A DNA stretch of 64,000 nt from an uncultured Acidobacteriota bacterium (GCA_963780755.1 CAWACX010000001.1:174105-238104); one strand, 5' to 3'; counted from the stretch's first letter, positions 3,013 to 51,654 are shown. Translations and numbers: made by a program. Notes: generated by a model not told the origin, from the sequence alone.

Positions 3013-4697
3013 CGGGGGAGGCGGACAGCGCGACCCACCGGCTGCTCCGGACCCGGTGGTTGGGCAGGCTCCCCTACGCCGAAGCCTGGGACCTGCAACG
3101 GGCGTTCCACGAGGGCAAGGCCCTGGGCCGCACCGGTGACGACTATCTCCTGTTGATGGAGCACCCGCCGGTGTTCACCATCGGGCGCAACGGGTCGGTC
3201 AACAACCTGCTCGCCCCTCAGGCAACGGTCGCCGAAGCCGGGGCGGAGCTCCATCACGTCGACCGCGGCGGGGACATCACCTTCCATGGCCCGGGCCAGT
3301 TGGTCGGCTATCCGATCCTCTCCATCGGGGATCCCAAGCAGGTGGTCCCCTATGTCCGTCGACTGGAGGAGACTCTGATCCGGACCCTCGGCGATCTTGG
3401 GGTCGAGGCGTGGTCGGAGCCCGGCTTGACCGGAGTGTGGACCGCCCTGGGGAAGGTGGCCGCCATCGGGGTCAAGGTGGCGAGGCGGGTGACCATGCAC
3501 GGTTTCGCCCTCAACCTCCATCCCGATATGTCCTTCTTCGAGATGATGAACCCGTGCGGGATCACCGACCGAGCCGTGACCGACCTCACCGAGCTGACCG
3601 GTCGCAAGGTCACCATGGAGGAGGCCGTCGAGACCCTGATCCCCAATTTCGAAGCGGTCTTTGGCTACCCACGGAACGAGGTGCAGTTCGCCGCTTTCAT
3701 CCGCGGCCAGGGGAGGGACGAGGATTTCGAGGTCGACCGCCTCCTGGCTTCGGGCACCTTCAGCGCCGACCGTCGCACGCAGGAGCCGATCATGGTCAAC
3801 GGGCGGCTGCCCGGAGAGCCGCCCCGACCGGAGTGGATGAAGGTCACCGCCCGGCTCGATGGTGACTATCTCGAGCTGAAGAAGCTGATGCGGGGCCTGG
3901 AGTTGAACACCGTCTGCGAAGAGGCCAACTGCCCGAACATCTATGAGTGTTGGGGGATGGGTACGGCGACCTTGATGATCCTCGGTGACAAATGCACCCG
4001 GGCCTGCTCGTTCTGCAATGTGACCACCGGTAAGCCAACGGAGCTCGATGTCTTCGAGCCGTTCCGCGCTGCGGAGGCCATCGCCAAAATGGGTCTCAAG
4101 CACGCGGTGATCACCTCGGTCAACCGCGACGACCTCGACGACGGGGGCTCGGAGATCTTCGCCAGGACCATCAGCGAGACCCGGCGCCGGTCGCCGGCGA
4201 CCGAGATCGAGGTGCTGATCCCGGACTTCAAGGGGGATCGGGAGTCGCTGCAGACCGTGATGGACGCCAGACCCGAAGTCTTGAACCACAACACCGAGAC
4301 GGTGCTCCGCCTGCAGCGTGACATCAGGACCTCCGCCAACTACGGGCGGTCGCTGGCGCTGTTGTGGCGGGCCCGGCAGATGGCGGATGGGGGACTGACC
4401 AAGTCCGGCCTGATCGTGGGCATGGGCGAGACCCGGGAAGAGGTGCTCGGAGCGTTGGCCGACATGAGGGCGGTGGGCATCGACATCATCACCATTGGCC
4501 AGTACCTGCGGCCGACAGCGCGACACCGGCCGATTCATCGCTATGTGCACCCGGACGAGTTCGCCGAGTACAAGTCGCATGGGGAGGGTTTGGGGATCCC
4601 CCATGTCGAGTCCGGGCCGCTGGTCCGCTCCAGTTACCACGCCAAAGAGAGCCGTGAAGCCGTTCCGGTGAAGATCGGCACTCGTTCGAGCATCTGA
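3009..4697 (+). CDS. lipA: LipB-LipA fusion: octanoyltransferase plus lipoyl synthase
   Basis: N-half has LipB motifs (EHPPVFTIG, DRGGDITFHGPGQLVGYP, KVAAIG, HGFALN, NPCG). C-half has LipA motifs (CEEANCPNIYEC, CTRACSFC, RSSY). One uninterrupted frame; probable TTG start at 3009 overlaps the E2 stop. Confidence 0.92.
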   Translation: MTGEADSATHRLLRTRWLGRLPYAEAWDLQRAFHEGKALGRTGDDYLLLMEHPPVFTIGRNGSVNNLLAPQATVAEAGAELHHVDRGGDITFHGPGQLVGYPILSIGDPKQVVPYVRRLEETLIRTLGDLGVEAWSEPGLTGVWTALGKVAAIGVKVARRVTMHGFALNLHPDMSFFEMMNPCGITDRAVTDLTELTGRKVTMEEAVETLIPNFEAVFGYPRNEVQFAAFIRGQGRDEDFEVDRLLASGTFSADRRTQEPIMVNGRLPGEPPRPEWMKVTARLDGDYLELKKLMRGLELNTVCEEANCPNIYECWGMGTATLMILGDKCTRACSFCNVTTGKPTELDVFEPFRAAEAIAKMGLKHAVITSVNRDDLDDGGSEIFARTISETRRRSPATEIEVLIPDFKGDRESLQTVMDARPEVLNHNTETVLRLQRDIRTSANYGRSLALLWRARQMADGGLTKSGLIVGMGETREEVLGALADMRAVGIDIITIGQYLRPTARHRPIHRYVHPDEFAEYKSHGEGLGIPHVESGPLVRSSYHAKESREAVPVKIGTRSSI

Positions 4698-4914: not shown

Positions 4915-6322
4915 CTAGTCCCGCTCCTCCGACGGGATGGGAGGCGGATCACCCGGCGGCGGCCAGGAAGGCGGTGGCTCGATCGAAGCCGGAGACAACG
5001 GCGTGAGGCGGTCGGCGACCCTGAGGAAGAAGCTGGCGGCCTCTTCGCGGCTGAGAGTGCGATTGCGGGCAGAAACGCCCGCCGCCACAACCTTCCGTCA
5101 ACCCGGCATCCGCAAACGTGTTGATGGCCGACTCCGCCCAATGCCCGCTGTCGTCGTTGAAAGCATTCCCACCAGAGGCTGGGAGCTTCAGGGCGCGCAC
5201 GGTCATCGTGGCGAACTCGGCGCGGGTCAGCATCCGATCAGGGCAGAAGGAGCCGGGATGACACCCGGTAGTGATCCCGGCGGCTGCCACCTTGTTGATC
5301 GCGCCCTCGAACAGGTGCCCGTTGTCGTCGGAAAAGAAGTCCCTGGGTGCAGGTGGGAGCGCGAGGACTCTGGCGAAGAGGGCGGCTACCTCCCCCCTGG
5401 TCATCAAGCGCTGAGGGCACGCGAGCCGGTAGCCGCATCCGTAGAGGAGCCCCCGGGCGTGGAGCTCGGTGAGCGCCTTCTTGTGAAGGCTGGCGTTGTC
5501 ATCGGTGAAGGGATCGAGGCATCCCACCCGCCCTTCCGTCGACACCACCACTTGGTCCATCGACATGGTGAGGTTGTTCGGTGTCGGCCAATCACCTCCG
5601 AAGTAGACGTTGAGCCACATCTCCCGGATCCCGACGCTGGATTCGGCCGCGCGACGAAACTGAATCCCGGTTCGCGTGAAGCGCTTCGTCCCGTCGAGCC
5701 ATCCTTCGACAACGCCATTGGCCTGACCGGGAGTGTTCAGTTTCACATGGCCCTCGATACATTGCCACCGCCCCTGCTTGAGGCTGGCCCCTGGCCAGTA
5801 CAGGCCCTCTCCACACTCTCCGGGCTGGTCGACGTGATAGAGGTAGATGCCGATGGGAACCGCTCCCGCCGGGGCCCCCTGGGTTCCTGCGGCGCCAAAG
5901 AGGCCTCGCGCCGACCATCCCGGGGAGCTCGGAGTCGACGGAATGCAGCCCCTCGCGCTCGCTGAATACAGGCCAGACAGGCCGGGAAGCTTCCCCGAAC
6001 CGGCAGAGTTCCAGTCGCGCAGCCTGATGTGATAGCGGTACCAGGCCTCGTCTGGAGAGGGCAGCGGCACTCTGTCGAAGGGGCCGAAACCGCGGAAGCC
6101 GCCGGTGGGGATGGTGACGTCCAGGCCGTAGCCGGCGAATCCGGTGCTCACCCGCTTGCCTCTTTGGACGTCGAGTGAGCGGTAGTCGACGAGCCCTTCC
6201 GCCCAGTCCTCGGTCTCGAAATCTCGAACGGCGACCGGCTCGGCGGAGGCGGGGAGCCCGACACCGGCCCCGACCATCAGGGCGGTCAGGACGAGGACGA
6301 TTCCAGATCGGATTGCCGTCAC
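4915..6322 (-). CDS. Secreted polysaccharide lyase (PL14-like) with three C-terminal SLH-like modules; frameshift near the 3' end
   Basis: Signal peptide (MTAIRSGIVLVLTALMVGAGVGLPASA), YHIRL...GKLPGLSG...GWSARGLF and GKWQ-like GRWQCIEGHVKLNTPG motifs, then SLH modules (LMTRGEVAALFARVL, MLTRAEFATMTVRAL, TLSREEAASFFLRV after the shift). Stop TAG reconstructed at 4915-4917. Confidence 0.75.
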
Positions 6323-7514: not shown

Positions 7515-8518
7515 TCAGCGCGGACCGTCGCCGTGGTGCGCTGAATCAATGCTCCATTCCATCGCCACTCTCCGACGAGTGTGTGGTTGCCCGGGGAGAA
7601 CACCAATGTCGTGTTCCAGCGTCGCAATGCCTGTGTCGACGATGTTGCGATCGCAAGCCCGGTGATCGACACCGGGTCTCCGTCGAGGATCAGGGTGAAA
7701 GTTGTATTCGAGGCGGTGAACTGAGCCTGCTCGCCTGCTTTGTAAGGCAGGACCTGGAAGAAGCCCTTCTTGAACCAGATGGGTCCGCCCGCTGAATGTC
7801 TCGATCAGCACCGAGCATGTGATTCCACCCTTGCCACAGCTGATCGGGGACCAATTGGCGAGAGGAAGCCGCTGTGGGTTGTGCGGGAGGTTCAGAGCAC
7901 GGGTCAGAAGCGTGGCGGTCTCACCACGGGTCAGTACCCGGTTGGGGCAAAAGCGATTGTTGGTGGGAGGGTTGCAGCCCACAGTGATCCCGGCAGCAGC
8001 GATCCGGTTGATCGGCCCTTCGAGCACGTGGCCGTTGTCATCGATGAAGAAGTCCTGATTGGTGTTCGGCAGGTCGAGGGCGCGGGTGATGAAGGTGGCG
8101 AACTCCGCCCTGGTGAGGTTGCGGTCGGGACAGAAACCGGTTGTTGGTCGGAGGGATTGCACCCAACGGTGAGCCCGGCGCCGCACCTTCGGTTGATCCC
8201 ACCCTCGAGAATGTGCCCGTTGTCGTCGACAAAGAAGTCCGGCTGGTGTTTGGGAGCTTGAGGGCACGAGTGAGGAATGTCGCCGCTTCGGCCCTGGTCA
8301 CGCTGTCGTTGGGGCAGAAGCGGTTGTTGGACGGCGGGTTGCATCCGGACGTGATATCGGCGAGGGCCATCGCCTCGATCCCGTTCTCGTGCGGGCTCCC
8401 GTTGTCGTCGACGAACGTTCCCTGGAGCACAACCGCGTCAGCCTGATCCGGCCAGAGCACTACAACCGTGCCCACCAGCACCGCCCCGGCGACACCGATG
8501 GTCAAGCCAGCGTCTCAT
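7515..8518 (-). CDS. Secreted protein with three SLH-like modules and an unknown C-terminal domain; frameshifted
   Basis: N-terminal signal/TM (TIGVAGAVLVGTVVVLWPDQADA), repeats GCNPPSNNRFCPNDSVTRAEAATFL, NLTRAEFATFITRAL, VLTRGETATLLTRAL. ATG at 8516-8518 overlaps the upstream TGA. Confidence 0.8.
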
Positions 8519-11525: not shown

Positions 11526-11580
11526 CTTAACCGGGGACCCATTTCAATCAAACGAACGCCCTGAAGGGGTATGCGGTTAG

Positions 11581-12465
11581 ATGCGGCTTGCCTTGCTCGG
11601 GGTCATACAATCCTGTCCCGTGGCTGTCTCCACCTCCCGAGGGATCACCTACCGCGCCCGAAGGTTGCGGACGTATGCGACCGACCTCTGGGGGCGCCGC
11701 GAGTTTGCCTGGTTCCTGGCGATGGGCAACCTCAAGGCGAGGAACGCTTCCACGGCCTTGGGGCTCTTCTGGTGGGTGCTCAATCCTTTGCTGCTCGGTC
11801 TCGTTTACTTCTTCGTTTTTGGCATTCTGTTTGCTGGTTCCAGCCGCCCAGAGGGATACATCGCATACCTGCTCTCGGGGATGTTCGTGTTCCATTTCAC
11901 CAACCAGTCGATGACGGGTGGGGCCAACGCCATCCTTCAGAACTCGAAGCTGCTGGCGAATTTGAAGTTCCCACGTCTGGTGCTCCTCATCTCGAGCCTC
12001 ATCGAGTCCGGCGTGGGCTTTCTCGCTTCCCTCGTCGTGTTCTATGCGATTGCCTGGCCTGCAGCCGGCGCTCATCCTTCGCGTTACACCCTGTTCCTCT
12101 TGGTGATCTTCCCCATACAGGTGATCTTCAACCTGGGCTTGAGCTCGATCGTGGCTCGGATGGCTGTGCCATTTCGGGACATCAACAACTTCCTCCCCTA
12201 TGTCAACCGACTCTGGCTGTACCTGTCGCCGATCATCTGGCAGCTCTCGTTCCTCGAGGACGCCGACCCGGCGATCCGCACGTTGGTCGAGCTGAACCCG
12301 ATGTTCCACATCATCGAGCTCTATCGAACTGCGTTGATCGGATATCCCGAATATCCGTTCCAGTGGGACAACCTGTGGACCGCACTGGCGTGGGCCGTGG
12401 GCGTATTCCTCCTGGGGGTGGCCGGCTTTGTCCGCTACGAGACGCGAATGGTTCGCTACCTGTGA
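11581..12465 (+). CDS. wzm: ABC-2 polysaccharide export permease (Wzm/TagG-like)
   Basis: LKARNASTALGLFWWVLNPLL, NLKFPR, FRDINNFLPY, LNPMFHIIELYR; multiple TM helices; coupled to the ATPase. Confidence 0.92.
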   Translation: MRLALLGVIQSCPVAVSTSRGITYRARRLRTYATDLWGRREFAWFLAMGNLKARNASTALGLFWWVLNPLLLGLVYFFVFGILFAGSSRPEGYIAYLLSGMFVFHFTNQSMTGGANAILQNSKLLANLKFPRLVLLISSLIESGVGFLASLVVFYAIAWPAAGAHPSRYTLFLLVIFPIQVIFNLGLSSIVARMAVPFRDINNFLPYVNRLWLYLSPIIWQLSFLEDADPAIRTLVELNPMFHIIELYRTALIGYPEYPFQWDNLWTALAWAVGVFLLGVAGFVRYETRMVRYL

Positions 12466-13202
12466 AAGGCTGGGCAATCAAGGCCGAGGAGGTAACGGTC
12501 GCATTCCGCCCCTTCGTGGAACGGAAGCCGACCTTGCGCCGAACGCTGGCCAATTTTCGGAGCAGGCAACGCGAGCTGGTGACCGCGCTCGACCATGTGA
12601 GCTTTGATGTGAAGAAAGGCGAAGCTTTCGGGATCGTCGGCCGCAATGGCGCCGGTAAGAGCACCCTGATGAGGGTCGTTGCCGGGACACTGCGCCCCGA
12701 CGAGGGTCGCGCCGTCAGCTCCGGCCGCACTTCGACGTTGCTTCAACTCGGGGTGGGCTTCAACAACGAGTTGTCCGGGATCCGCAACATCTACCTCGGT
12801 GGGCTCGCCGCCGGCCTTCGAAGGAAGCACATAGACGAGCTATTCGACGACATCGTCGCCTATGCCGAGCTCGAGGAGGCGATCGATCGTCCCATCAAGA
12901 CGTATTCGTCAGGGATGTTGTCCCGTCTCGCTTTCTCGATCGGCATGCACCTCAACCCGGACATCCTGCTCCTCGACGAGATCCTCAGCGTGGGTGACGA
13001 GTCGTTCCGGGTCAAGAGCGAGCAGACGATGCAGGACCTGCTTGGCAGATCGGGGACCATCGTGTTCGTCTCTCACAACTTGAACAAAGTTGCCGAGTTC
13101 TGTGACCGGGCAATGTGGTTGGAGCGGGGCATGGTGCGCCACATCGGTGAGGCTGGCGATGTGGTCGACCACTACCGGGCAGCCGTGGCGTCGGGCTTGT
13201 GA
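12462..13202 (+). CDS. wzt: ABC polysaccharide export ATPase (Wzt/TagH-like) with no C-terminal carbohydrate-binding module
   Basis: GTG start overlapping the wzm stop; Walker A GRNGAGKS, signature YSSGM, Walker B LLLDE, SHN. About 246 aa. Confidence 0.93.
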   Translation: MKGWAIKAEEVTVAFRPFVERKPTLRRTLANFRSRQRELVTALDHVSFDVKKGEAFGIVGRNGAGKSTLMRVVAGTLRPDEGRAVSSGRTSTLLQLGVGFNNELSGIRNIYLGGLAAGLRRKHIDELFDDIVAYAELEEAIDRPIKTYSSGMLSRLAFSIGMHLNPDILLLDEILSVGDESFRVKSEQTMQDLLGRSGTIVFVSHNLNKVAEFCDRAMWLERGMVRHIGEAGDVVDHYRAAVASGL

Positions 13203-14394
13203 TTGTGACGAGTGAATCGTCGGAGCCTCTGGTCGATCCCGCGCTGCTGGCTGCCCGGGCCAGGTTGGCAATGGTCGCCGCCGAGCTCGGCCTCGGAGTC
13301 ACCATTGCCCACAGAGGATCGACCGGAATCAGAAACCCCCTTCATGCCCTTGGTCACCGTCGTGATGCCGGTGTTCAACGACGAGAAGTTCGTAGCTGCT
13401 GCCGTCGACTCGGTCCGGCGACAGACCTATCCCAATTGGGAGTGTGTGATCGTGGACGACGCGTCGGTCGACACCTCGTGGGACATTCTCCGGTCGGTCA
13501 CCGATGGCGACGACCGCTTCCGAGTCGCCCGGCAGCCGAGCAATCAAGGCCCGGCAGCCGCACGCAACCGCGCGATCGAATCATCCAAAGGCGACTTCGT
13601 GGCTTTCCTCGACGGCGACGACCTCATGCTTCCTTACAGTCTCGAGGATCGGGTCGCCGCCTTGATCCCACATCGTGATGACCCGCACATAGCCGGGTCA
13701 TATTCCGGTGCCCGTTTCGGGGCCGAGGAATCGAAGTTGGGAGATTTCCCGGTACGTCAGAGCGCAACCCTGCGGCCCTTTGTCGACTTCGTGATCTCCG
13801 ACGGGGAATGCCCGTTCAGCATCATCGCCCCGCTCGTCGAAGTTGCCGTAATCAGAGGTGTCGGTGGTTTCGACGAGAAGATGCGCTCGGGGGCGGCCGA
13901 TTGGGAGCTTTGGCATCGCATATTGCGCAATGGCCACGTCTTCGTGTCGGCACCGGTCCTCGGTGCCGTGTACCGGCAGAATGGGAGTGGGTTCACCCGG
14001 ACCAATCCGGCGTCGCACACAGCGGTCGCAGCTCGTTTGATCGGCGCCGCACACAAGAGATTCTCGAGGCGCTCATTGCGCGCCCCCACCCCGTTCCCGA
14101 TGCGAGAGCCGATCGGCCACTACCGGATGATCCTCAAAGTCGCCGAGAGGGCGACCCGATTCGCTGCGATGGCCCTGGTTGACGGCAAACCCGACGAGAT
14201 GATCTCGACGTTGTCGGTGCTGCAGCCCGGGTACATGGCCCCTGCTGGAAAGGCACTTGGCTGTCGGCGACTTGGTGAAGGCGGGCGCGGCGAGGTCGCT
14301 CGGAATCCTCCCAGGCCAGCTCGACACCGAGCTCGATGTCTTGTCGCCATTGGTGACCACGGTCAGAGCTGGGATGGCAGAGGCAAGCGCATGA
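13199..14394 (+). CDS. GT2 glycosyltransferase, frameshifted
   Basis: LVTVVMPVFND, VDDASVD, NQGPAAARN, FLDGDD. A shift at about 14230 restores WPLLERHL...MAEASA* ending in ATGA at 14391-14394. Confidence 0.8.
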
Positions 14395-15281
14395 CCGCGC
14401 CACGGGCCTCCATCGTCATTCGGTGCCACAACGAGGCTGACCACATCGGAAAGCTGTTCGCCGAGCTCAAACGGCAGACTTTCACCGACTACGAGATCGT
14501 GGTCGTCGACTCCGGGTCGGATGATGGGACGCTCGACATCGTCGAAGGTGAGGATGTGGTCCTCGAGCACATTCGCAAGGAGGAATTCAGCTTCGGGCGC
14601 TCGCTCAACCTGGGGTGCCAGGCCGCTTCGGGGGAATTCTTGGTGTTCATCTCGGCGCATTGCTATCCAGAGCACGAGTCCTGGCTGGAGAACCTGATAT
14701 CGGCTTTCGACGACGACAAGGTGGCCGTGGCCTACGGCAAGCAAAGGGGCATTCCCGAATCGCACTTCTCGGAGCGCCAGATCTTCCGCCGCTGGTTCCC
14801 CGAGGAGTCGGTCCTTCGCCAGGACGGGCCCTTCTCCAACAATGCCAACGCCGCGATCCGGAAATCGCTGTGGGAGTCCCATCCATACGACGAAGCCGTG
14901 ACCGGGCTCGAAGACGTGGCCTGGGCCCAGCAGGTGATGCGCGAGGGTTGGTGGGTCAGTTATCGCGCCGACGCCGGCGTGATCCACGTCCACAACGAGA
15001 CACCGAGCCAGATCCGCAATCGATACCGTCGTGAGGCGATCACCTTCCAGAAGGTCTTTCCCGGTGAGCACTTCAACGCATGGGACTTCCTGCGGCTCTC
15101 CGCAAGGAACGTGACAGCCGATGCCAGCGCCGCCCGGGCTGAGGGCATGGGACTGGCCGCAATCTGGCCGATCGTTCGCTTTCGGCTGTCGCAGTTCGCC
15201 GGCACCTACCAGGGGTTTCACATGCGACGGCCCCCTTCGAGCGATCTCAAGAAGCGCTTCTATTACCCCGAGGAACCTTGA
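14391..15281 (+). CDS. GT2 glycosyltransferase (rhamnosyltransferase-like)
   Basis: MTAPRASIVIRCHNE, VVDSGSDDGT, FSFGRSLNLG, FSNNANAAIR, LEDVAW, HVHNE. Confidence 0.88.
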   Translation: MTAPRASIVIRCHNEADHIGKLFAELKRQTFTDYEIVVVDSGSDDGTLDIVEGEDVVLEHIRKEEFSFGRSLNLGCQAASGEFLVFISAHCYPEHESWLENLISAFDDDKVAVAYGKQRGIPESHFSERQIFRRWFPEESVLRQDGPFSNNANAAIRKSLWESHPYDEAVTGLEDVAWAQQVMREGWWVSYRADAGVIHVHNETPSQIRNRYRREAITFQKVFPGEHFNAWDFLRLSARNVTADASAARAEGMGLAAIWPIVRFRLSQFAGTYQGFHMRRPPSSDLKKRFYYPEEP

Positions 15282-15282
15282 G

Positions 15283-15945
15283 TTGAGCCTGGCCGGCCTG
15301 ATCCCGATGAAGGGCCATTCCGAGCGTGTGCCGGGCAAGAACTTGAGGCTGATGGCGGGCAGGCCTCTGTTTCATTGGATAACGGAGACCCTGACCCGCG
15401 CAGACAACGTGGACGAGGTCGTGATCGACACCGACAGTGATGAAATCGAGGCCGCCGTCCGTGCTTCCTTTCCGGAAGTCACCATCCATCGCCGCCCCGA
15501 CCACCTACACGGCGATTTCGTGCCGATGCACGACGTGGTCACCGAGGTTGCCAGGGCGCTCGGCCACGACCATCTTCTCCAGACCCATTCCACCAACCCG
15601 CTGCTCCGCACTGAAACCGTGGAAGCCGCGGTCGAGTCCTATCTGGAGCCGGGGGAGCACGATTCGCTGATGTCGGTCACCGCCTTGCAGACCCGGTTCT
15701 TCTTCGAGGACGGCCGCCCGGTGAACCACGATCCGGCAGTGTTGCTTCGAACCCAGGACCTGGCTCCGATCCTCGAAGAGAACTCCTGTCTCTACATTGC
15801 CCCGCGCTCCCAGGTGGTGACGACCGGCAGGCGGGTAGGGCCGAAGCCAAAGTTGTTCGCCATTCCTCGGGAGGAGGCGGTGGACATCGACGAAGAGCTC
15901 GATTTCGCCATCGCCGAGTTCCTGCTGGAGCGTGCTCATGGCTGA
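15283..15945 (+). CDS. Acylneuraminate/ulosonate cytidylyltransferase (NeuA/CMAS family)
   Basis: LIPMKGHSERVPGKNLR, VIDTDS, THSTNPL, EENSCLYI, DIDEELDF. Confidence 0.88.
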   Translation: MSLAGLIPMKGHSERVPGKNLRLMAGRPLFHWITETLTRADNVDEVVIDTDSDEIEAAVRASFPEVTIHRRPDHLHGDFVPMHDVVTEVARALGHDHLLQTHSTNPLLRTETVEAAVESYLEPGEHDSLMSVTALQTRFFFEDGRPVNHDPAVLLRTQDLAPILEENSCLYIAPRSQVVTTGRRVGPKPKLFAIPREEAVDIDEELDFAIAEFLLERAHG

Positions 15946-16873
15946 CCGGGTGTTGATCAGTTGCATCCACGTATGGTCCGACGCCGCCCAGGTCACGGCC
16001 CGGCTCGAGGGACTCGGCCTCGAAGTCGACATCCCGCGGTTCGAAGGACAGCAACTGGACGAAGCGGACTTGCTGCCGATCATCGATCGCTATGCCGGGA
16101 TCCTGGCCGGGGACGACGAGCTCAACCGCAGCGTGCTTCAGGCCGGCACCAACCTCAGGGCGATCTCGAAGTGGGGAGTCGGGGTCGATGCCATCGACAT
16201 GGTGGCTGCCGAGGAGCTGGGAATCGCGGTCCTCAACACGCCGGGAGTCTTCGGTGAGGAGCTAGCCGACTATGCGATGGGCTATCTCCACTTGCTGGCG
16301 CGACGACAGCACGAGGTGAACGAGAAGGTCAAAGCCGGGACCTGGCACAAGGTGAAGGGTCGATCCCTGGCCGGGATGACCCTGGGGATCGTGGGAATGG
16401 GAAGCTCCGGCCGTGCCCTGGCTCGAAGGGCAACGGCGGCGTCGATGCGGGTGGTCGGTTATGACCCGTTCCCGGTGGAGGAAATGGCCGAGTTCGAGTT
16501 GGTTCCCTTCAACCACCTGCTCGCAGAGTCAGATGTGGTCTCGCTTCACATGCCGGCGTCGGATGACACCTATCACATGTTCGAGGCGGCCGCACTGGGG
16601 AAAATGAAGGACGGGGCGTGGCTGATCAACACATCACGCGGCTCGCTGGTCGATGAGGGCGCGCTTCTTTCGGCTCTGGTGGACGGGAAGATCGGCGCTG
16701 CTGCCCTCGATGTGTTCGAGCAGGAGCCAGTGGCCCCGGACAACCCGCTCCTCGGCCTGGATAACGTGATCGCCGGGTCGCACAACGGCTCCAATACGTT
16801 CCAGGCGGTGGCCAGAACTACCCAGGCGGCGCTGGACAACCTGATCCGTGGTCTCGGCTTGGAGGAACAGTGA
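15938..16873 (+). CDS. D-isomer-specific 2-hydroxyacid dehydrogenase (phosphoglycerate dehydrogenase-like)
   Basis: SKWGVGVDAID, NTPG, GIVGMGSSG, LINTSRG, AALDVFEQEP, SHN. Confidence 0.9.
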   Translation: MADRVLISCIHVWSDAAQVTARLEGLGLEVDIPRFEGQQLDEADLLPIIDRYAGILAGDDELNRSVLQAGTNLRAISKWGVGVDAIDMVAAEELGIAVLNTPGVFGEELADYAMGYLHLLARRQHEVNEKVKAGTWHKVKGRSLAGMTLGIVGMGSSGRALARRATAASMRVVGYDPFPVEEMAEFELVPFNHLLAESDVVSLHMPASDDTYHMFEAAALGKMKDGAWLINTSRGSLVDEGALLSALVDGKIGAAALDVFEQEPVAPDNPLLGLDNVIAGSHNGSNTFQAVARTTQAALDNLIRGLGLEEQ

Positions 16874-17571
16874 TCGAATCTGTGATCGTCACCGGAGCCT
16901 GTGGTGGGGTGGGGTCGGCCTGTGTCACCGCTTTCCAAGAGATGGGCGCCTGGGTGCTCGGGGTCGACCGGGAAAAGGAAAGCGGTGCCGACGAGCACCT
17001 GGTGCTCGACCTCGTCGACCCCGATTGTGGGAAGCAATTGCGTGAGCACCTCGCCGACCGGCCGCTGGACGTCCTGATCAACAACGCCGCAGTCGGATTC
17101 GCCCTGGAGGCGACGGAAGCCGATGCCGCTACGTTCGACGAGGTCATCGCGGTGAATCTCCGCGCACCCTTCCTCTTATCCACCGCCCTATATCCCGTAC
17201 TTGTCGAGAGCAGAGGCTCCATCGTCAACGTGGGGTCGGTCCATGCGGTCGCCACCGCAGCCCGAGTGAGCGCATACGCGGCATCGAAGGGTGGGTTGGT
17301 CGCGTTGACCCGAGCACTCGCCATGGAGTGGGCGCCGGAGGTGAGGGTCAACGCTGTCCTCCCAGGAGCGGTCGACACCCCCTTGCTGTCGGACGGGCTG
17401 TCACGGGCCAACATGACACTCGCCGGCTTCGGCGAGCGCCAGCCGGTCGGTCGGGTGGGAATGCCGTCCGAGATTGCGGAAGCCGTAGTCTTCCTCGCCG
17501 CCAACGGCTTCACCACCGGTGCATCCTTGGTGGTCGACGGAGGGGCTTCGGCCCGATTGAGCACCGAGTAG
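16870..17571 (+). CDS. Short-chain dehydrogenase/reductase
   Basis: VTGACGGVG, NNAA, GSV, YAASK, VNAVLPGAVDT, VDGG. Confidence 0.9.
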   Translation: MIESVIVTGACGGVGSACVTAFQEMGAWVLGVDREKESGADEHLVLDLVDPDCGKQLREHLADRPLDVLINNAAVGFALEATEADAATFDEVIAVNLRAPFLLSTALYPVLVESRGSIVNVGSVHAVATAARVSAYAASKGGLVALTRALAMEWAPEVRVNAVLPGAVDTPLLSDGLSRANMTLAGFGERQPVGRVGMPSEIAEAVVFLAANGFTTGASLVVDGGASARLSTE

Positions 17572-17584: not shown

Positions 17585-18136
17585 GTGAACATGACCAACA
17601 CCCTGTTGTCGGCTCGAAGTCGGCGCGTCGCCCTGTTCCTAATGGTTGCGCTGATCGCAGTGGGATTCCTGATCTACCCGGAGAGCCTCGCCGTCAAGGT
17701 CCTCGGTGCCCTACTCACGGCTCTCGTCGGCGTGGTCCTCAAGGCGTTGTCCGAGGTTCAAGGCGAGGTCCGGCGCCGCCTTCGGCGGAGGTCCGGCGAG
17801 TCGATGAGGCGGTGATGCGATCTGGAAAGGAACGCGAGGCGGCGGCTCGGGAGGCCGGGCACCGCCTCGATCGTGTGGCGGCATCCGTTTCCACGATGTC
17901 GGCCGTCGAGCATCCCGTGTCCAAGAAGACATCGGCCGAATCGAGATCAGCGAGAGCCCAGTGAAGAGACCCGAGTAGCCCTCGCCGCCCTGTCGGACCG
18001 AGTCGAGAACGGTGGCGGTTTCGGGCGACGTGGCAGCCGGGTACATGGTGAGGTCGAGGCGGGGCCTCTTCGAGAATTGGGCTTCGAGCGAATCTCTTGG
18101 CGGGATCGGCCTGGTGTCGACTCCGAGCCCGGGTGA
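17585..18136 (+). CDS. Membrane protein with two TM helices and a helical tail; frameshifted, 3' end uncertain
   Basis: VALFLMVALIAVGFLIYP and VLGALLTALVGVVL. The charged helical sequence continues in other frames (AEVRRVDEAVMRSGKEREAAAREAGHRL). Confidence 0.4.
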
Positions 18137-18877
18137 GACGAGAGGGCTGACAGGAGTACTGGGACGAAGGAACCCGGCTTGGGTGGCTCCATGTCGGCGA
18201 ACGGCTGTCGTTGCCAGATGGCGATTCCTGGGGTGTACCAACTGCGAAACGGGAGGTTCACCAGGTTGCCCCCGTGGCGCGCCAGGATCGTGCGGAGTGC
18301 GCCATTGACCCTCGGGTCCTCGGTCCCCTCGGAGATAAGGGCGGTGTTGTCGAAGATCACGACGCCGTCCGGACGCATGCGATGGACGACCATGTCGAAC
18401 TCCTTGACAACATGGTCGTGGAAGTGGTTGCCGTCGAGAAAGGCGATCGCGACCTCGTCCACATCAGCGACGATCTCTGGAAGCACCTCAAGGCATCCCC
18501 GCAGTAGGTCGGTCACACGCCGGAGACGCCGGCAAGCACGAACCGCCGTTTCGCCTCCTCATGGATGTCCGGATCGAGCTCGATGGTGTTGGCACGGTCG
18601 CCTTTCGCCCGGAATCGAGTATCGCCTGGCCGATCAGGATGGCGGTGGAGCCTACGTTGGTCCCGGTCTCGATGATCACGTTAGGGCGATCGGAGTCGAG
18701 GAGCATCAGGACGGTGTGATAAACCCAGCCCCAGCCAGGGTGTCCCAGGCTGCGGCCCGATCTGGTCACCCAGTCGATCTCGTCGATCACTCCGTCGTCG
18801 AGGAAGGCGACGAAGCGGCTGGGGATGATCGACCGGTCGTATTTCGTGATCCGGTAGCGGTAGTCAGGTTCGCGGAC
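17947..18877 (-). CDS. Class I SAM methyltransferase (Methyltransf_24-like), frameshifted; both ends uncertain
   Basis: VIIETGTNVGSTA, IELDP, AFLDGNHFHDHVVKEF, MRPDGVVIFDN. Confidence 0.75.
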
Positions 18878-18897
18878 GCAGTTCTCCCGATCTCTCC

Positions 18898-21550
18898 TCA
18901 GAACAGCTCGGTGTAATCGACTCGCTCGAAGATCTCCAGGCGACCTCCGGCGGTGGCATTGACGATGCGGCGACCGTCGGCCTCGAAGATGCTCTTGGCC
19001 AGGGCGTAATTGGCCAAGACCCTGTCTAGTTTCGGGTCCTTCCAAACCTTGCCCGCACCGAAGTAATCGGGGTGGAAATGATTCGGGTCGGGCCCGGTAG
19101 AGGTGATGACGATCACCTTCGACCTCGTGCTCGGGCGGCACCGTGTAGGAGAAATCCATCCCGATGAGGATCACCTCATCGAACCCCATTTGATAGGCGA
19201 TCTGGAGATTGATGATGGTCACAGATTGCCCGCTGTAGATCCGTTGCGCCGGGTCGAACGAGAACCTCGGGATGCAGTAGTCGGGGGACAACGGTTCATA
19301 GAAGCCACGATTCATCATGAAATAGGTGACGTCGTCGTGCTCGCCGACCATGCTCCTATAGATCGAGGGGAAGAACTTGTGCCCGGCCTGGTACGCCACC
19401 ACCGCCTCCAAGTTGTCCCTCATCACCGCTGTGTCTTCCACCACGTAATACGTGGGGTCGAATCCCATCGTCGATTCCGCGTAGAAGATGGCGTTGACAG
19501 CGATGGTGTTCTCGCCTTTGAGGCGAGTCAGATCGAGCTCGTTTAGCGAGGGCCCGTTCCCGATGATCACGACTCGCTCCCCACGATGGCCGTCCTTGAA
19601 CCGTGCCATGTCCACTGCGTCGAACGTGGTTCTGGGCGCCTCCTCGACGACCCAGGTGGACGCCGGGTCGAGGTCCCTTCCGTCCGGTCCGGGGCCGAGG
19701 CCGATCACAGATCGCCCGAGATTCGCCAGAGTCCCCCGCTGGTTCGACTCGAATCGGTTGCGATGCGCCTCCTCGATCGTCATCAATTCGGAGTACGGCT
19801 GCGGGACCACGATGACCTGGCCGCCTTTGGCGGCGAGGGCATTGGCGATCCCATCGACGACGGCAGTCCTCACCTCGCCGACCACGGCGGTTTGGCATTG
19901 GCCATTGGCGAGGGCCCATTGGTTCAGGGACCAGATGGCAAATGTATCTGGAACTTCCGCGGCGACACCTTGCGCACCCCCCTCGCGCTCGGTCAGTAGC
20001 ACCGCCATGTCAACACGCTCGAACCCCGCAGCGTCAGCGGCCTTGATCAGGTCCTGGAGTTGTCCGGCATGTTGAGGCACCAGCAGCACCTCGATCTCGA
20101 CCGATGGAGGGGGTGGGATCTGTTCCGGCTCGAAACCGGCGAGAGCGGCATAGATCAAGGCCTGCAATCGATCGCGAATCGGCCGTGAAAGAGTCGAGAT
20201 TGCGTCGAGCTCGCTAGCGCCGAGGGCCAGGGCACGCTGCATCCCGCGACCGGCCAGGTCTTCGAGGTCGAGGTGGCGCCTGAGGAGGGCCGGCGGCACC
20301 CCAGATATTGTTGCCAAAGCCCGGTTGGCGGCAACCTCGTCCCCGGCGACCAGGGCCATCGCGGCAAAACGGACCGCCCGATCGGCAACCAGCAGCGCCG
20401 CCTGGTATTCGGCTATGGGCCGGGTCAATGGGGTCGGAGACGGCGAAGTGAGGATGCCGGGCTCGACCGGCCGATGCGCCGCCTGGATCAGCCTTGACGC
20501 CTCGACGACGTGCCCATCGGCCATCGATCGGACCATCGAGTGTCGCTTCTGGCGATATACGGCAGTCCGGAACTTGGAGGGCACGAACACATAGCCGTTC
20601 CGCATTGCCCGATACCAGAGATCCCAGTCTTCTGCTCCAAATCGCATCGACTCGTCGAAGCCCCTGAGGGCCCTGAGCTTTTCGGTCACCAGCAGCGGGG
20701 CATGGGCATTGAACGGGCACTCGGCGTCGGCGGTCACCAGGTCGATCACCTGGTCCGCGTCGAACTCCATGCGGGCGGGGTAGTCCTCGAGGACGGCTTC
20801 CTCGTGGCCAATGGTCACGCCACAGAAGGAGCCGATCACATGGGGATCAGGCTCGGCGTTGACCAGGGTGGCAACGCGGTCCATGAGGCTGTCCCGCATC
20901 AAGAGGTCGTCGGAATCGAGGAAAGTGACATAACGCCCCCGTGCCGCTCTGAGCCCGGTGTTGCGGGACGCGCCCAGACCAGCGTTCTGCTGATGACGTA
21001 ACACCCGAAATCGATCATCCGTCGTGGCGATGGACCAGATCTCACGTAACGACGAGTCGGTGGAGGCGTCATCGACGACAATGCACTCCCAGCTCGCGAA
21101 TGTCTGTGCCGCGATCGACCGCAGGGTGCTGGCGACGAATTGCTCTTCGTTGTGGCAGGGGACAACCACGGTCACCCACGGCCCGTCGCCAGCGGCGGAC
21201 ATCTCACCATCCACCAGGCCCATATCCTCCAAACGGCGGATCGAGGTCTCCAACAGGTCGACGGCGCTCGTCATTCGAACCGCGATCCGGTCGTCGGCGT
21301 CACTCGGCCGTGCAGTGATCGAGGCGACCGGATGGCGCCTCACGTCATATTCGGCTCGTCTCAGTCGGGCGACCAGGTCGCTGAATCGAACGCTCAAGAT
21401 CAGAATCAGTGACCCAAAGCCGAGGATGGCGAGAACTCCAAGAATCGCGGACCACGGCGCGGGGGTGAACAAAGCGGCCACGCCGGCAGCCGTCGCCGAC
21501 ATGAGCAATATGCCCCTCCTCGACTTGAGCAACGCGGTGAGCGCTCTCAT
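18898..21550 (-). CDS. Multidomain transferase: N-terminal TM, GT2, linker, DUF115/GT42-like sialyltransferase-fold domain; frameshift at about 19120
   Basis: GT2 motifs (VVVPCHNE, VDDASTD, GLGASRN, FLDSDD), then VVIIGNGPSLNELDL, IAVNAIFY, YMGF-like QMGFDEVILIGMDFSY and, after the shift, NHFHPDYF...IVNATAGGRLEIFERVD*. Confidence 0.82.
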
Positions 21551-25582: not shown

Positions 25583-26428
25583 TCAACCGATCAGGTCTGC
25601 CACGACTTTGGTGAGCGAATCTTCCCAAGGGGGCAACTCCTCGATGTCGAGGTGAGCGAGCCGTTCCGAGCCGAGCACCGTGTATCTCGGCCTTTCCGCA
25701 TCACCTGGATTGCGTGTCGACGGACAGGGGCGGAGCGGGGATGGGTCGAGTCCGGCAGCCTCGAACGCGTGGGTGGCCAGGCGGTATCTTGTCGTCGACC
25801 CCCGATTGGCGAGGTGCAGGACCCCGGTCGCCCCACTCCGTATCGCCTCCACGCTCGCTGCGGCCAGGTCAGCAGCGATCGTGGGACTTCCCTGCTGGTC
25901 GTCCACTACATCCACCCTGGGCTCGCCCGCCTTCGCCAGGATTCTGGATACGAAGTTGCGGTGAGACGCCGAGATCACCCATGAAGTGCGGATTACCAGC
26001 GTGCGAGCGTTCGCGTCCAGAGCAAGGCGTTCGCCGTGAAGCTTGCTCCGTCCATATGCGTTGATCGGAGCCGGAACTGCCGACTCGAGATATGGGACGG
26101 TTGCCGTCCCGTCGAAGACATAGTCGGTGGAATAAGTGACAAACGGGAGGTCGGCTTCAGCCGCTGCCGCGGCCAGGGCCCCCACCGCCCAGCCGTTGAC
26201 TGACTCGGCGCTCTCAGTCTCACTCTCGGCGCGGTCGACGGCGGTATAGGCGGCGCAATTGATGACGACGTCCGCCCCACTGTGACGGATCAGCTCCCGT
26301 GCCGACCCCGCATCGATCCGGGCGAGGTCGAACTGCTCGTGGGTCGGGGCGGTCAGTTCATCGAAATGTCGTGCCAGGGCGCTCCCCACTTGGCCGCTGC
26401 CACCGAGGAGCAACACCGACGGCCTCAT
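25583..26428 (-). CDS. rmlD: dTDP-4-dehydrorhamnose reductase
   Basis: [46 protein letters not shown]. Confidence 0.93.
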
Positions 26429-27282
26429 CGGCCTTCGAGCAGCCGTTCAAGGTAATGGCGGTACGAGGATCGGGGAGCGCCTCCACGATGGCGGTGAGCC
26501 GTCCACATTGAGGAACCCGGAGCGCAACGCAACTTCCTCGAGGCAGGCGATCTTGATGGACTGGCGGTGCTCCACCGTGGCCACGAAGTTGGCGGCATCG
26601 AGCAAGCTGTCATGGGTCCCGCTGTCCAGCCAAGCGACCCCACGGTCCGAGACAGATTCACGTGAAGCCGGCCCCGCTCGAGGTAGGCGCGGTTCAGGTC
26701 GGTGATCTCCTTCTCTCCGCGGGAAGACGGTCTAAGCCCCGCGGCAATCTCGACCACGGCGGAGTCGTAGACGTAGAGGCCCGGGACCGCATACCGGGAC
26801 CGGGGCCGGGATGGCTTCTCCTCGAGACCTACGACCAGACCGGCGCCGTCGACCTCGACGACTCCGTATCGCTGCGGATCACGGACCGGATAGCCGAAGA
26901 TCTCGGCTCCTCTCTCATGTGCCTCGACGATTCGGTCGAGCCCGATGTCGCCGTAGAAGATGTTGTCGCCGAGGATCAGAGTGACCGGCGTCTCGCCGAT
27001 GAAGCTTCGGCGATGAGGAAGGCCTCGGCGATGCCGCGGGGCTCGTGCTGACGCGCATATGCCAGCTCGATCCCGAACGCGCTCACCCTGCCCAGGAGGT
27101 CCTGGAATGCGGCAGGTCGTTCGGGGTGGTGATGATGAGGATCTCGCGGATCCCGGCATCCATCAGAGTGGCGAGCGGGTAGTAGATCATCGGCTTGTCG
27201 TAGACCGGCTGCAGCTGCTTGGAGGCGACCCGGGTGATCGGGTCGAGCCGGGTGCCGGCGCCGCCGGCAAGGACGATGCCCT

Positions 27283-28280: not shown

Positions 28281-28827
28281 CTAGTGCGAAGAACTCGGCG
28301 TGCCGCAGATGGCGGCGCGCCGGCGTCCTTTGCAGAGAGGAGGGGCTCGCCTGTCGAGGGGCCAGGTGATGGCGAGGTCCGGGTCGTCCCAGCGCAGGGC
28401 GCGCTCGGATGCGGCGAGTAGCAGCCGGTGACCTTGTAGTGGACCTCGGCCCAGTCGGAGGTCGTGAGGAAGCCATGGGCGAAGCCGGGCGGGACCCAGA
28501 TCTGGCGCCGGTTGTCAGCCGACAGCTCGGTTCCGAACCATTGCCCGAATGTGGGAGAGGACTTTCGCAGGTCGACGGCGACGTCGAAGACAGGCCGGGC
28601 GGACTCGCACCAGCTTCCCTTGGGCGTCAGGTGGGAGCTGGTAATGGAGGCCGCGCAGCACACCGCGCTTCGATCCGGAGTGGCCGTCCTGGACGAATTC
28701 GACGTCGACTCCGGTGACCGCCTGAACTCTCCCGACTCCAGCTCTCGAAGAAGAATCCCCTGTCGTCTTGGTGGGCCGGTGGTTCGAGCACGAGAACGCC
28801 ATCGAGCGACGTGGCGAGGGCATCCAT
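28281..28827 (-). CDS. rmlC: dTDP-4-dehydrorhamnose 3,5-epimerase, frameshifted
   Basis: DDRGFFFESW, FVQD, VLRGLHYQ, QGKLVR, VDLRKSSPTFGQW, WVPPGFAHGF. Confidence 0.9.
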
Positions 28828-28934
28828 GGCGGCGGAGGGTACTGCCGGAGCCTGGCGCGGGCAGTGGCGACCTGCGGTGACTCGGCGGATGGCATCGGCC
28901 GCTCGCGGGTTACTGTCTCCTCGACAGTGAGCGG

Positions 28935-51603: not shown

Positions 51604-51654
51604 AACCTCATCTTCCCAGGGCCGGGCCTCGCGGAGTGCGAATGCAACCGTAAG

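Follow-up and report, generated by a model that had tools for sequence, protein, structure and literature searches.

To our knowledge, all described bacterial CMP-activated sugars (Kdo, sialic, legionaminic, pseudaminic and related acids) stem from PEP-dependent condensation of the NeuB or KdsA type. The substrate of CMP-Kdn synthetase, for example, is 3-deoxy. We know of no CMP-activated 3-hydroxy-2-ulosonic acid and of no GT2 enzyme that uses a CMP-sugar; characterized Maf/MptE-like domains transfer nonulosonates from CMP donors. Oxidation at C2 by D-2-hydroxyacid dehydrogenases is known from PdxB acting on 4-phosphoerythronate and from SerA acting on 3-phosphoglycerate, and GhrB/TkrA catalyze the same chemistry in reverse on 2-ketogluconate. 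Here we analyze three coupled genes that bring a cytidylyltransferase together with two oxidoreductases. In our estimate, it is an even question whether this trio forms the biosynthetic core of a cassette (type I, defined below) that supplies an acidic keto-sugar to a wall glycopolymer without a NeuB- or KdsA-type synthase.

The trio lies on the plus strand of a 64,000-nucleotide stretch of DNA (the window) from the 2.2-Mb Acidimicrobiia genome (G000; two contigs, 88.9% marker completeness) of an actinobacterium from freshwater or soil. Its surroundings are those of a wall-glycopolymer island, with many GT2 genes on either side and a gene for a TagH-like ABC transporter (ABC ATPase) just upstream. 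The three products, all small and soluble, are a cytidylyltransferase of the CTP_transf_3 family (CTase; 15283-15945, 220 aa, TTG start), a NAD-type D-2-hydroxyacid dehydrogenase (HADH; 15938-16873, 311 aa, PF02826 and PF00389) and a NAD-type classical SDR (16870-17571, 233 aa, PF13561 and PF00106). The TTG start of the CTase lies one base past the TGA of the upstream GT2 gene. The most likely start of HADH is ATG 15938, which makes for an 8-nt ATGGCTGA overlap with the CTase stop, and the junction between HADH and SDR is a GTGA overlap. The original prediction, made from the sequence of the window, had described a coupled trio of these families, and we indeed find three intact, translationally coupled frames with their catalytic motifs in place.

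Membership of the CTase in the CMAS/KdsB superfamily, also part of that prediction, is borne out by a Pfam profile search (PF02348, 77.8 bits) and by a CMAS fold. Among the NCBIfam models the CTase reaches no curated equivalog cut-off: the best curated match, TIGR03584 (PseF), gives 72.3 bits, below its cut-off of 205.7, and KdsB models give at most 46.1 bits, below cut-offs of 155-281. The ESM Atlas returned only generic clusters labeled 'acylneuraminate cytidylyltransferase family'. The P-loop (...SERVPGKN) and the C-terminal DIDxE motif can be aligned with murine CMAS. The top structural matches of an AlphaFold model (pLDDT 89.4) are CMP-Kdn synthetase (9t4z, TM 0.84) and murine CMAS (1qwj, TM 0.81), and the CMP-Kdn, CMP-Neu5Ac and CMP-Pse synthetases together span TM 0.76-0.84. 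Presumably, the product of the CTase is a CMP-2-O-ketoside of an alpha-keto sugar acid.

The CTase is encoded by the only CTP_transf_3 gene in the source genome. In a phylogeny that included NeuB-linked CTases the cassette enzymes did not cluster with them: 73 cassette CTases form one clade, a long branch away from the NeuB-linked CTases and KdsB. The branch between this clade and the NeuB-linked rows L023, L024, L026 and L125 has a length of 2.5 and an SH-aLRT of 95 in a quick tree. One NeuB-linked CTase from an E. coli plasmid (n = 1) appears as the long-branch sister of the cassette clade. In genus g48, genomes of 1 Mb contain a cassette CTase as well as a separate NeuB-linked CTase.

The original prediction further stated that no NeuB, NeuC or KdsA is recognizable in the window. 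This absence extends to the entire source genome at its 88.9% completeness, where the search for a standard nonulosonate synthase pathway found none and no Epimerase_2 match, hence no NeuC, was detected. The only PF03102 matches are two DAHP synthases of the aromatic pathway, both outside the window. Neither was accepted as NeuB: one has a ferredoxin-like domain and sits beside trpA, and the other is fused to chorismate mutase, prephenate dehydratase and ACT. Since this genome holds no third DAHP_synth_1 member, it has no KdsA. Likewise, neither NeuB nor KdsA was found in nine relatives with 94-100% complete genomes and orthologous CTases (47-83% identity), four of which (G110, G227, G099 and G235) lack DAHP_synth_1 genes altogether.

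The two oxidoreductases carry the defining motifs of their families. HADH (PF02826, 190.9 bits; PF00389, 61.3 bits) contains the GxGxxG motif and the catalytic triad Arg234/Glu263/His282. At least 90% of 84 orthologues retain each of these three residues, and Asp176, where beta-2 ends, is present in 84 of 84. It is most similar to phosphoglycerate dehydrogenase (PGDH; 216.2 bits against a cut-off of 454), the glyoxylate/hydroxypyruvate reductase GhrB (195.6 against 492), PdxB (132.6 against 434) and 2-ketogluconate reductase, and stays below the cut-off for all of them. Judging from its sequence, we propose that HADH may oxidize an aldonate to a 2-keto-aldonate. The SDR contains the motifs TGxxxGxG, NNAA, Ser and YxxxK at positions that are invariant or nearly so (12 and 49 orthologues compared). 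Its Asp33 occurs in 94% of 49 orthologues, and both HADH and SDR carry a NAD-type Asp after beta-2. Models of aldose dehydrogenase (155.9 bits, cut-off 341) and glucose 1-dehydrogenase (149.8 bits, cut-off 215) score about as well on the SDR as those of FabG and BudC. Placement in one specific family was given up because 12 orthologues score equally on the glucose/aldose dehydrogenase, FabG, BudC and KduD models. Among the PDB neighbors named for this protein are archaeal glucose/aldohexose 1-dehydrogenases, including glucose 1-dehydrogenase 3vtz and the AldT-related 2dtd.

The proposed role of the SDR as an aldose 1-dehydrogenase draws mainly on adjacency to a lactonase. In three orthologous cassettes (loci L041, L043 and L100) the SDR is paired with an SMP-30/gluconolactonase, encoded close by in Sulfitobacter and by overlapping genes in Thalassovita and in a Phycisphaerae locus. 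These pairs lend added support to an oxidative origin of the acid. Of the 80 best GTDB loci, a single one gave a lactonase match, and no SMP-30 lactonase was found in the source genome.

The notion that the locus is peculiar to this organism did not survive comparison with other genomes. We use 'type I' as a working name, not that of a published family, for cassettes with the order GT2-CTase-HADH-SDR, with or without an MptE-like gene. The source locus has the orthologous genes in this order and a CTase in the cassette clade. Other Acidimicrobiia share this order at protein identities of 44-88%, and Rhodobacterales plasmids do so at 33-46%. Relatives of the CTase are encoded in no fewer than 439 stretches of species-representative genomes from many phyla, and also on Rhodobacterales plasmids and viral contigs. 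A survey of co-occurrence in the 80 best GTDB loci found HADH beside the CTase in 74, SDR in 51, GT2c in 42, an MptE-like gene in 42, a NeuB-like gene in six and KdsA in none. The conserved gene order shows that the trio is associated by more than chance. The trio is the core of the cassette; the complete unit is larger, with a dedicated GT2 domain, usually a Maf/MptE-like transferase and sometimes an SMP-30 lactonase. Plasmids of Sulfitobacter and Thalassovita carry the full set of GT2, CTase, HADH, SDR and MptE-like parts; the Gemmobacter plasmid gave no SDR match. The Thalassovita cassette, which has its own CTase, adjoins a complete KpsF-KdsB-KdsA set and is hence distinct from a Kdo pathway.

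No published description of the cassette was found in full-text literature searches. The sole related lead is 4-deoxy-2-hexulosonic acid, a substituent found on the E. coli K3 rhamnan (Dengler 1988, cited in PMC10433991; bioRxiv 10.1101/2025.01.29.635457), where the corresponding locus is left unassigned.

The gene directly upstream of the trio codes for a double-GT2 protein of 689 aa (13212-15281). Its second GT2 domain (aa ~393-688; 14388..15281, plus strand), with Pfam Glyco_tranf_2_3 at aa 397-609, is the part kept directly upstream of the CTase in relatives and is here called the cassette glycosyltransferase. This half is 62-90% identical in close Acidimicrobiia loci, 47-49% in other families and 40-41% on Rhodobacterales plasmids. 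In G099 the GT2 domain is fused in frame to the CTase, which we count as support for a link between the cassette and sugar transfer.

Downstream of the SDR follows a gene for a small membrane protein (17585..18133, plus strand) with an in-frame stop about 80 codons in. It is 47% identical to the 180-aa product of L004:12303-12845, gave no Pfam match and is kept at this place in the same genus; its membership in the cassette is doubtful. On the minus strand, the gene at 18901..21550 encodes a GT2 plus MptE/Maf-like (DUF115) transferase (PF00535 and PF01973). In the frame 18488-21550, PF00535 matches aa 127-230 and PF01973 matches aa 650-803 (58 bits). The MptE-like domain occupies approximately 19142-19603, an apparent frameshift falls between 19031 and 19110, and the final 70 residues are read in a different frame; an intact 883-aa orthologue is found at L004:13605-16256. 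The MptE-like domain is the only one in the source genome and is 50-51% identical to the MptE-like proteins of the plasmid cassettes. Three cassette genomes are without any MptE-like domain. By its domain content, the GT2-MptE protein is a candidate CMP-sugar-acid transferase.

How might such a cassette work? The chemistry that follows, including the substrate, the order of steps, the redox direction and the transferase that uses the CMP-sugar, is what we infer. The SDR would oxidize C1 of a free aldose, and the resulting aldonolactone would open spontaneously in the source organism and by the action of the SMP-30 lactonase in some relatives. HADH would then oxidize the aldonate at C2. The product, a 2-keto-aldonic (2-ulosonic) acid, would retain its 3-OH, and the CMAS-like CTase would join the anomeric 2-OH of this acid to CMP. 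Finally, the residue could be placed onto the polymer by the cassette GT2 and/or the MptE/Maf-like domain, and the TagH-like ABC transporter may export the polymer. The most economical reading is that the acid arises by oxidation, independently of a synthase. Several points count against it: the unspecific model scores of the SDR and the rarity of lactonase genes in the surveyed loci, the lack of a known CMP-activated 3-hydroxy-2-ulosonic acid, the three cassette genomes without an MptE-like domain (GT2 enzymes are not known to use CMP-sugars), the 88.9% completeness of the source genome, and indel-type frame breaks near the cassette.

The original prediction had proposed that two oxidoreductases may provide a synthase-independent route. 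The absence of NeuB, KdsA and NeuC, the separate position of the CTase and the lactonase pairs all speak for this proposal, but it would apply to type I cassettes only. In a sister cassette (type II) an HpcH/HpaI class II (pyruvate) aldolase and a HAD phosphatase replace the SDR and GT2. Given this carbon-carbon-bond-forming enzyme, the lack of a synthase is a property of the cassette type and not of the CTase family. The type II CTases belong to the same clade as the type I enzymes and are intermixed with them, which hints that the substrate of the family could be a keto-deoxy acid. HpcH and SDR occur together in only 1 of the 80 best GTDB loci, suggesting that the two are alternatives rather than partners. 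An HpcH-like aldolase is also found on related viral contigs. An apparent aldolase-CTase fusion in L036 was discarded: the 435-aa frame matches only CTP_transf_3, so that the N-terminal extension is spurious.

The type II cassettes bring up the possibility, unlikely in our judgment, that the acid of the source organism also comes from an unrecognized or non-classical carbon-carbon-bond-forming enzyme. In that case, the substrate of the CTase would be a 3-deoxy-2-ulosonic acid, and HADH and SDR would serve only to tailor this acid or to supply its precursor. The source could be an HpaI/GarL-like aldolase (G000:C2:338268-339017) or dephosphorylated DAHP from the aromatic pathway. This idea is consistent with the HpcH/HpaI aldolase and HAD phosphatase genes right beside CTases of the same clade, with the viral aldolases, with the single HpcH-family gene and two DAHP synthases of the source genome, and with CMP-Kdn synthetase, an enzyme with a 3-deoxy substrate, as the top fold match. 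On the other hand, the aldolase of the source genome is only 32% identical to the cassette aldolases, which are 48-52% identical to each other, and its gene adjoins that of a cystathionine gamma-synthase. This aldolase was set aside as a candidate for the missing synthase: the paralogue sits in an unrelated context, and the cassette carrier G050 (96% complete) yielded neither an orthologue nor any HpcH/HpaI aldolase above cut-off. The presence of such a distant paralogue elsewhere in the genome nevertheless counts against an oxidative route. A second DHDPS-family gene was rejected as well, because it occurs in 27 of 40 family genomes and is therefore not cassette-linked; most of these 27 genomes are probably without the cassette, which is present in 3 of 35 genomes of a class sample. 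KDPG aldolase was not found in the source genome. The rarity of loci with both HpcH and SDR also argues against a carbon-carbon-bond-forming origin, and it is not obvious how a D-2-hydroxyacid dehydrogenase would tailor a 3-deoxy-ulosonate.

A non-ulosonic product appears improbable. Following the logic of TarI/TarJ or Gtp1-3, the oxidoreductases would make a small hydroxy acid or polyol (phosphate), for instance one derived from glycerate or hydroxypyruvate, and the CTase would activate it as a CMP- or CDP-linked substituent of a teichoic-acid-like polymer. That HADH scores best on phosphoglycerate dehydrogenase and glyoxylate/hydroxypyruvate reductase models would fit such a product, as would the TagH-like ABC ATPase and the many GT2 genes around the trio, and one L006-type locus has an LtaS-like sulfatase-family gene adjoining the cassette. 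However, the CTase shares its fold with CMAS and KdsB and has the DxD two-metal motif of enzymes that activate a sugar hydroxyl. IspD/TarI-type structures reach only TM 0.63-0.69 to the CTase model, below every CMAS and KdsB structure, and neither Pfam nor NCBIfam gave an IspD-family match. In addition, MptE/Maf-like domains recur with the cassette (42 of 80 loci), and type I cassettes contain no kinase or phosphatase. That the locus is a decaying remnant without a product is very improbable: the neighboring GT2-MptE, methyltransferase and small membrane-protein genes do have frame breaks, including those at 18.2-19.1 kb, and the rmlA and rmlC ORFs only partially match their Pfam models, but GT2, CTase, HADH and SDR are each encoded by a full-length frame in which no catalytic residue is missing and the junctions are coupled, and in a two-contig genome of such completeness whose close relatives are metagenome bins, indel errors would be the likelier cause of the breaks.

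If the oxidative route is correct, it would be a second, purely oxidative entry into CMP-ulosonates and thus a new branch of nucleotide-sugar metabolism. The corresponding product would be an unrecognized acidic surface sugar on abundant environmental Acidimicrobiia, Anaerolineae, Nitrospirota, roseobacters and cyanobacteria, and an additional type of donor for Maf/DUF115 transferases and possibly for a GT2. Our broadest proposal, which we put forward with somewhat less than even confidence, is that the NeuB/KdsA-free oxidative route leads to an undescribed class of CMP-activated, 3-hydroxylated 2-ulosonic acids, installed by a dedicated GT2 and/or Maf-like transferases in the envelopes of more than 10 bacterial phyla and encoded also on marine plasmids and in viruses, with the type II aldolase route converging on the same or a close sugar. 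Since the cassette resides on plasmids of cultured, non-pathogenic marine bacteria (Sulfitobacter sp. D7 with p4SUD7, Thalassovita gelatinovora with pAge77, and Gemmobacter fulvus) and its enzymes are small and soluble, this hypothesis is testable.

With the Kdo pathway (KdsD-KdsA-KdsC-KdsB) the cassette shares the logic of making a 2-ulosonic acid, activating it with CTP and transferring it, and the type II cassette with its aldolase, HAD phosphatase and CTase mirrors KdsA-KdsC-KdsB step by step. The type I cassette differs in that KdsA was not found in the source genome or its relatives, and in the low KdsB scores of its CTase. TarI/TarJ (CDP-ribitol) and other CDP-polyol modules also combine a reductase or dehydrogenase with a cytidylyltransferase that feeds a wall polymer, near a TagH-like gene; unlike in those modules, the CTase is of the CMAS type and not of the IspD/TarI type, and a step that forms a sugar phosphate is not evident. 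Non-phosphorylative aldose oxidation (XylB/XylC; archaeal AldT) has in common with three orthologous cassettes the pairing of an SDR with an SMP-30 lactonase. In those pathways the aldonate is dehydrated and catabolized, whereas here there is no dehydratase and the neighbors are a CTase and transferases. PdxB, SerA and GhrB/TkrA share the family, the catalytic triad and the NAD-type cofactor site with HADH, and the reaction proposed for it would be the same chemistry; the setting of HADH is biosynthetic and glycan-related, and its scores fall under every equivalog cut-off. The MptE-like domain is that of the Maf/DUF115/MptE-like transferases (PF01973) and likely uses a CMP-sugar, but here it is fused to a GT2 and encoded in a wall-polymer island, not in a flagellin glycosylation locus. 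Finally, the CMP-Kdn and CMP-sialic acid synthetases (PpNeuA 9t4z, murine CMAS 1qwj, N. meningitidis CNS 1eyr) share their fold with the CTase (TM 0.80-0.84) at 20-30% sequence identity. The alignment with 1qwj is full length, and the P-loop ending in KN (PMKGHSERVPGKN in the CTase, ARGGSKGIPLKN in 1qwj), QTxxTxP and the C-terminal DIDxxxD metal motif are kept in the CTase. Unlike these synthetases, the CTase is never coupled to NeuB or NeuC in this setting; its partners are HADH and SDR.

The original prediction of a coupled trio at positions 15283–17571, consisting of a cytidylyltransferase (CTase), a D-2-hydroxyacid dehydrogenase (HADH) and a classical short-chain dehydrogenase (SDR), was confirmed: the three genes lie on the forward strand with tight junctions, and the catalytic residues of all three products are intact. 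The CTase gene (15283–15945, CTP_transf_3, 220 aa) starts with TTG one base past the TGA of the upstream glycosyltransferase gene. The ATG of the HADH gene (15938–16873, 311 aa) overlaps the CTase stop (ATGGCTGA), and the GTG of the SDR gene (16870–17571, 233 aa) overlaps the HADH stop (GTGA). The window lies on contig 1 of a 2.2 Mb genome in two contigs (65% GC, 88.9% marker completeness), and close homologues of its proteins carry Acidimicrobiia or Actinomycetota labels.

The trio sits within a large envelope-glycopolymer island containing a TagH-like ABC-transporter gene (ATPase domain, 11571–13202), a double GT2 gene (13212–15281) and, on the reverse strand, a gene joining a GT2 to an MptE/Maf-like (DUF115) domain (~18901–21550). 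Further genes code for methyltransferases, an AT3-SGNH acyltransferase, dTDP-rhamnose enzymes, a rhamnosyl O-methyltransferase-like protein, additional GT2s, a GT2-pyruvyltransferase fusion, a member of the UDP-glucose/GDP-mannose dehydrogenase family and several SLH-domain proteins. The occurrence of these SLH-domain proteins (4949–6322, 7515–8267, 36052–37218, 38631–41123 and 47167–48327; one with a PL14 lyase and one with an M23 peptidase domain) together with the GT2-pyruvyltransferase fusion suggests that this Acidimicrobiia lineage has an anchoring system of the SLH/pyruvylated secondary-cell-wall-polymer type.

By comparison with a same-genus locus (L004), the reverse strand is interrupted by frame breaks at 18166–19110: the GT2-MptE protein changes frame for its final 70 residues, and the 241-aa methyltransferase that follows is spread across three frames. 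Therefore, the 1020-aa ORF at 18488–21550 is an artefactual read-through. Given the completeness of this two-contig genome, the breaks suggest indel errors of long-read assembly rather than decay. The same problem, or a wrong choice of ORF, is probably why an rmlA-like ORF (26425–27159, reverse) matches only positions 95–221 of the NTP_transferase Pfam model, and an rmlC-like ORF (28515–29240, reverse) only positions 34–71 of dTDP_sugar_isom. A single 570-aa frame at 2985–4697 (forward) links the catalytic domain of an LplA/B lipoyl(octanoyl) transferase with a radical-SAM lipoyl synthase; this fusion looks real, since gene calling in a same-genus genome gives the same arrangement (561 aa). 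Approximately 10 kb at 51595–61100 contain long ORFs without Pfam match and with a strongly negative AT skew (minimum -0.23), which may encode novel surface proteins or reflect a misread strand.

The CTase aligns over its full length with murine CMP-Neu5Ac synthetase (E = 1e-16) and keeps the C-terminal DIDxxxD metal motif, with an altered P-loop (PMKGHSERVPGKN). Its top curated family score is 72 bits for PseF (cut-off 206), and KdsB models give at most 46 bits. Among known structures, the AlphaFold model (pLDDT 89.4) best matches PpNeuA, a CMP-Kdn synthetase (TM 0.84), followed by the murine, meningococcal and Vibrio CMP-sialate synthetases and CMP-Pse synthetase, with KdsB (TM 0.70–0.77) and IspD (TM 0.63–0.69) ranking lower. 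A quick maximum likelihood tree was built from 81 CTases, each labelled with its genomic neighborhood. Those with an HADH neighbor form one clade, set apart by a branch of 2.5 (SH-aLRT 95) from four NeuB-linked CTases and from a KdsA-linked KdsB; a single NeuB-linked CTase, from an E. coli plasmid, joins this clade as a long-branch sister. The window enzyme is predicted to act like a CMAS and falls outside the NeuA, PseF, LegF and KdsB groups.

A capsule-like cluster on an E. coli plasmid (L127, NZ_CP145673, 7989–10899) encodes a 32%-related CTase annotated as hypothetical, an inositol-monophosphatase-family protein and a 514-aa NeuB-family synthase, with a methyltransferase and a large GT2 next to it; its pathway depends on NeuB and is a different one. 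Acidimicrobiia of genus g48 (~1 Mb) contain a divergent cassette copy (CTase 35–37% identical to that of the window) and a separate NeuB-linked CTase (28–30%). A streamlined ~1-Mb Acidimicrobiia genome, G032 (loci L125/L126), has a divergent copy of the type I cassette described below side by side with a NeuB-linked CTase and two genes of the NeuB family, all within ~20 kb.

The reported lack of a NeuB, NeuC or KdsA homolog holds genome-wide, as far as profile searches reach. The NeuB model matched two loci only (32–35 bits), both of which are DAHP synthases of aromatic biosynthesis: one adjoins trpA, and the other carries fused chorismate mutase, prephenate dehydratase and ACT domains. Since a third DAHP_synth_1 gene is absent from this genome, it encodes no KdsA; Epimerase_2 (NeuC) and a second CTP_transf_3 gene are also absent from it. 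Orthologous CTases (47–83% identity) occur in nine other Acidimicrobiia genomes. Because none of these 94–100% complete relatives contains a true NeuB, incompleteness does not explain the missing synthase; four of the nine (G110, G227, G099 and G235) lack DAHP_synth_1 genes entirely.

The only pyruvate aldolase of the HpaI/GarL type in the window's genome is a distant gene on contig 2 that adjoins a cystathionine gamma-synthase gene and is 32% identical to cassette-type aldolases; in cassette-bearing G050 we found neither an orthologue nor an HpcH match above cut-off. A second DHDPS paralogue was ruled out as the missing synthase, since 27 of the 40 family genomes sampled have it and it is thus unrelated to the cassette. 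One unpublished genome each enters the tally of CTase-bearing relatives (G212) and that of DHDPS paralogues (G319); neither is the basis of an individual claim. No KDPG aldolase was found in the genome.

The conserved unit is a cassette larger than the trio. Other Acidimicrobiia share a block GT2-CTase-HADH-SDR (type I), whose GT2 is the counterpart of the C-terminal half (aa ~393–688) of the double GT2 in the window; G099 encodes GT2 and CTase in a single 614-aa frame (L034, 8287–10131). A GTDB pattern scan with one genome per species returned at least 439 stretches encoding a CTase relative. The best 80, from which neighborhoods were read, are mostly labelled Anaerolineales or other Chloroflexota, the remainder including Nitrospirota, Desulfobacterota, Alphaproteobacteria, Planctomycetota, Cyanobacteria, Spirochaetia, Aminicenantes and Bacteroidota. 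Among these 80 of at least 439, tblastn within ~10 kb of the CTase detected HADH in 74, SDR in 51, the cassette GT2 and an MptE-like domain in 42 each, a NeuB-like gene in six and KdsA in none. Plasmids of the cultured Rhodobacterales Sulfitobacter sp. D7, Thalassovita gelatinovora and Gemmobacter fulvus carry GT-CTase-HADH(-GalE)-MptE-like sets with 40–51% identity to the window GT2, CTase, HADH and MptE-like domain; those of Sulfitobacter and Thalassovita also encode an SDR (33% identical).

The proposal that two oxidoreductases supply an unusual ulosonic acid without a synthase is partly supported: it agrees with the failure to find a classical synthase and with the separate position of the CTase; as to its chemistry, we infer an oxidative route from four observations. 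First, the genes for the SDR and for an SMP-30/gluconolactonase overlap in Thalassovita and at a Phycisphaerae locus, and are close neighbors in Sulfitobacter; an SDR and a lactonase are the classic opening of non-phosphorylative aldose oxidation. Second, archaeal glucose/aldohexose 1-dehydrogenases are among the named PDB neighbors of the SDR, which family models do not separate from FabG or BudC. Third, the enzymes that HADH most resembles are phosphoglycerate dehydrogenase, glyoxylate/hydroxypyruvate reductase, 2-ketogluconate reductase and PdxB, all of which interconvert aldonic and 2-keto-aldonic acids. Fourth, an Asp after beta-2, the mark of NAD rather than NADP enzymes, is present in 100% of 84 HADH and 94% of 49 SDR orthologues, consistent with two oxidations. 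An aldose would thus be converted via its lactone to the aldonate, then to the 2-keto-aldonate, which would be activated as a CMP-ulosonate and transferred to a glycan. The MptE/Maf-like domain may be the user of this CMP-sugar. Since PF01973 is found nowhere in G099, G235 or G325 (the genome of L049), all with the four-gene block, the cassette GT2 is also a candidate. To our knowledge, CMP-sugar use is unusual for a GT2, but the GT2-CTase fusion and the MptE-less genomes raise this possibility.

Alternatively, an unrecognized synthase could provide a keto-deoxy acid as the substrate of this CTase family. A sister cassette (type II) keeps this explanation alive: it combines CTase and HADH with a HAD phosphatase and a class II pyruvate aldolase of the HpcH/HpaI family, without SDR and cassette GT2, and may point to a keto-deoxy substrate. 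Type II sets occupy 12 of the best 80 of at least 439 loci and are also present in L036, L037, L039 (Acidimicrobiia of another family, f3) and L040 (Acuticoccus plasmid NZ_CP094833, CTase 57.5% identical); the two annotated loci also encode an extended SDR and, variably, a cyclase-family hydrolase. HpcH and SDR occur together in only one of the 80. The CTase tree interleaves both types with at least 3–6 switches, whereas the HADH tree places 12 of its 13 type II members in a single clade, which suggests from phylogeny that the CTase substrates are similar and the HADH roles different. Speculatively, type II HADH and HAD could convert 3-phosphoglycerate to hydroxypyruvate as aldol donor, in which case this route and the oxidative one would both lead to a 3-hydroxylated 2-ulosonic acid. 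Type II loci include L074, L077 and the viral loci L134–L156; an MptE-like domain or a GFO/IDH/MocA oxidoreductase are variable extras of this cassette type. A CTase relative and an HpcH-like aldolase are encoded together in many viral contigs of low GC content; in one giant-virus bin, weak HADH and SDR matches were found instead.

All parts of the window cassette are of known kinds (CMAS-like CTase, D-2-hydroxyacid dehydrogenase, SDR, GT2 and Maf-like transferase), and the full-text literature searched contains no description of their combination without a NeuB/KdsA-type synthase. We consider it an Acidimicrobiia member of a putative CMP-ulosonate biosynthesis and transfer system. This system differs from the Kdo pathway: in Thalassovita, a complete KpsF-KdsB-KdsA set adjoins the cassette, which has its own CTase. 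Precedent for an ulosonic acid on rhamnan that is neither Kdo nor a nonulosonate is the 4-deoxy-2-hexulosonic acid of the E. coli K3 capsule (Dengler 1988, as cited in PMC10433991; bioRxiv 10.1101/2025.01.29.635457).
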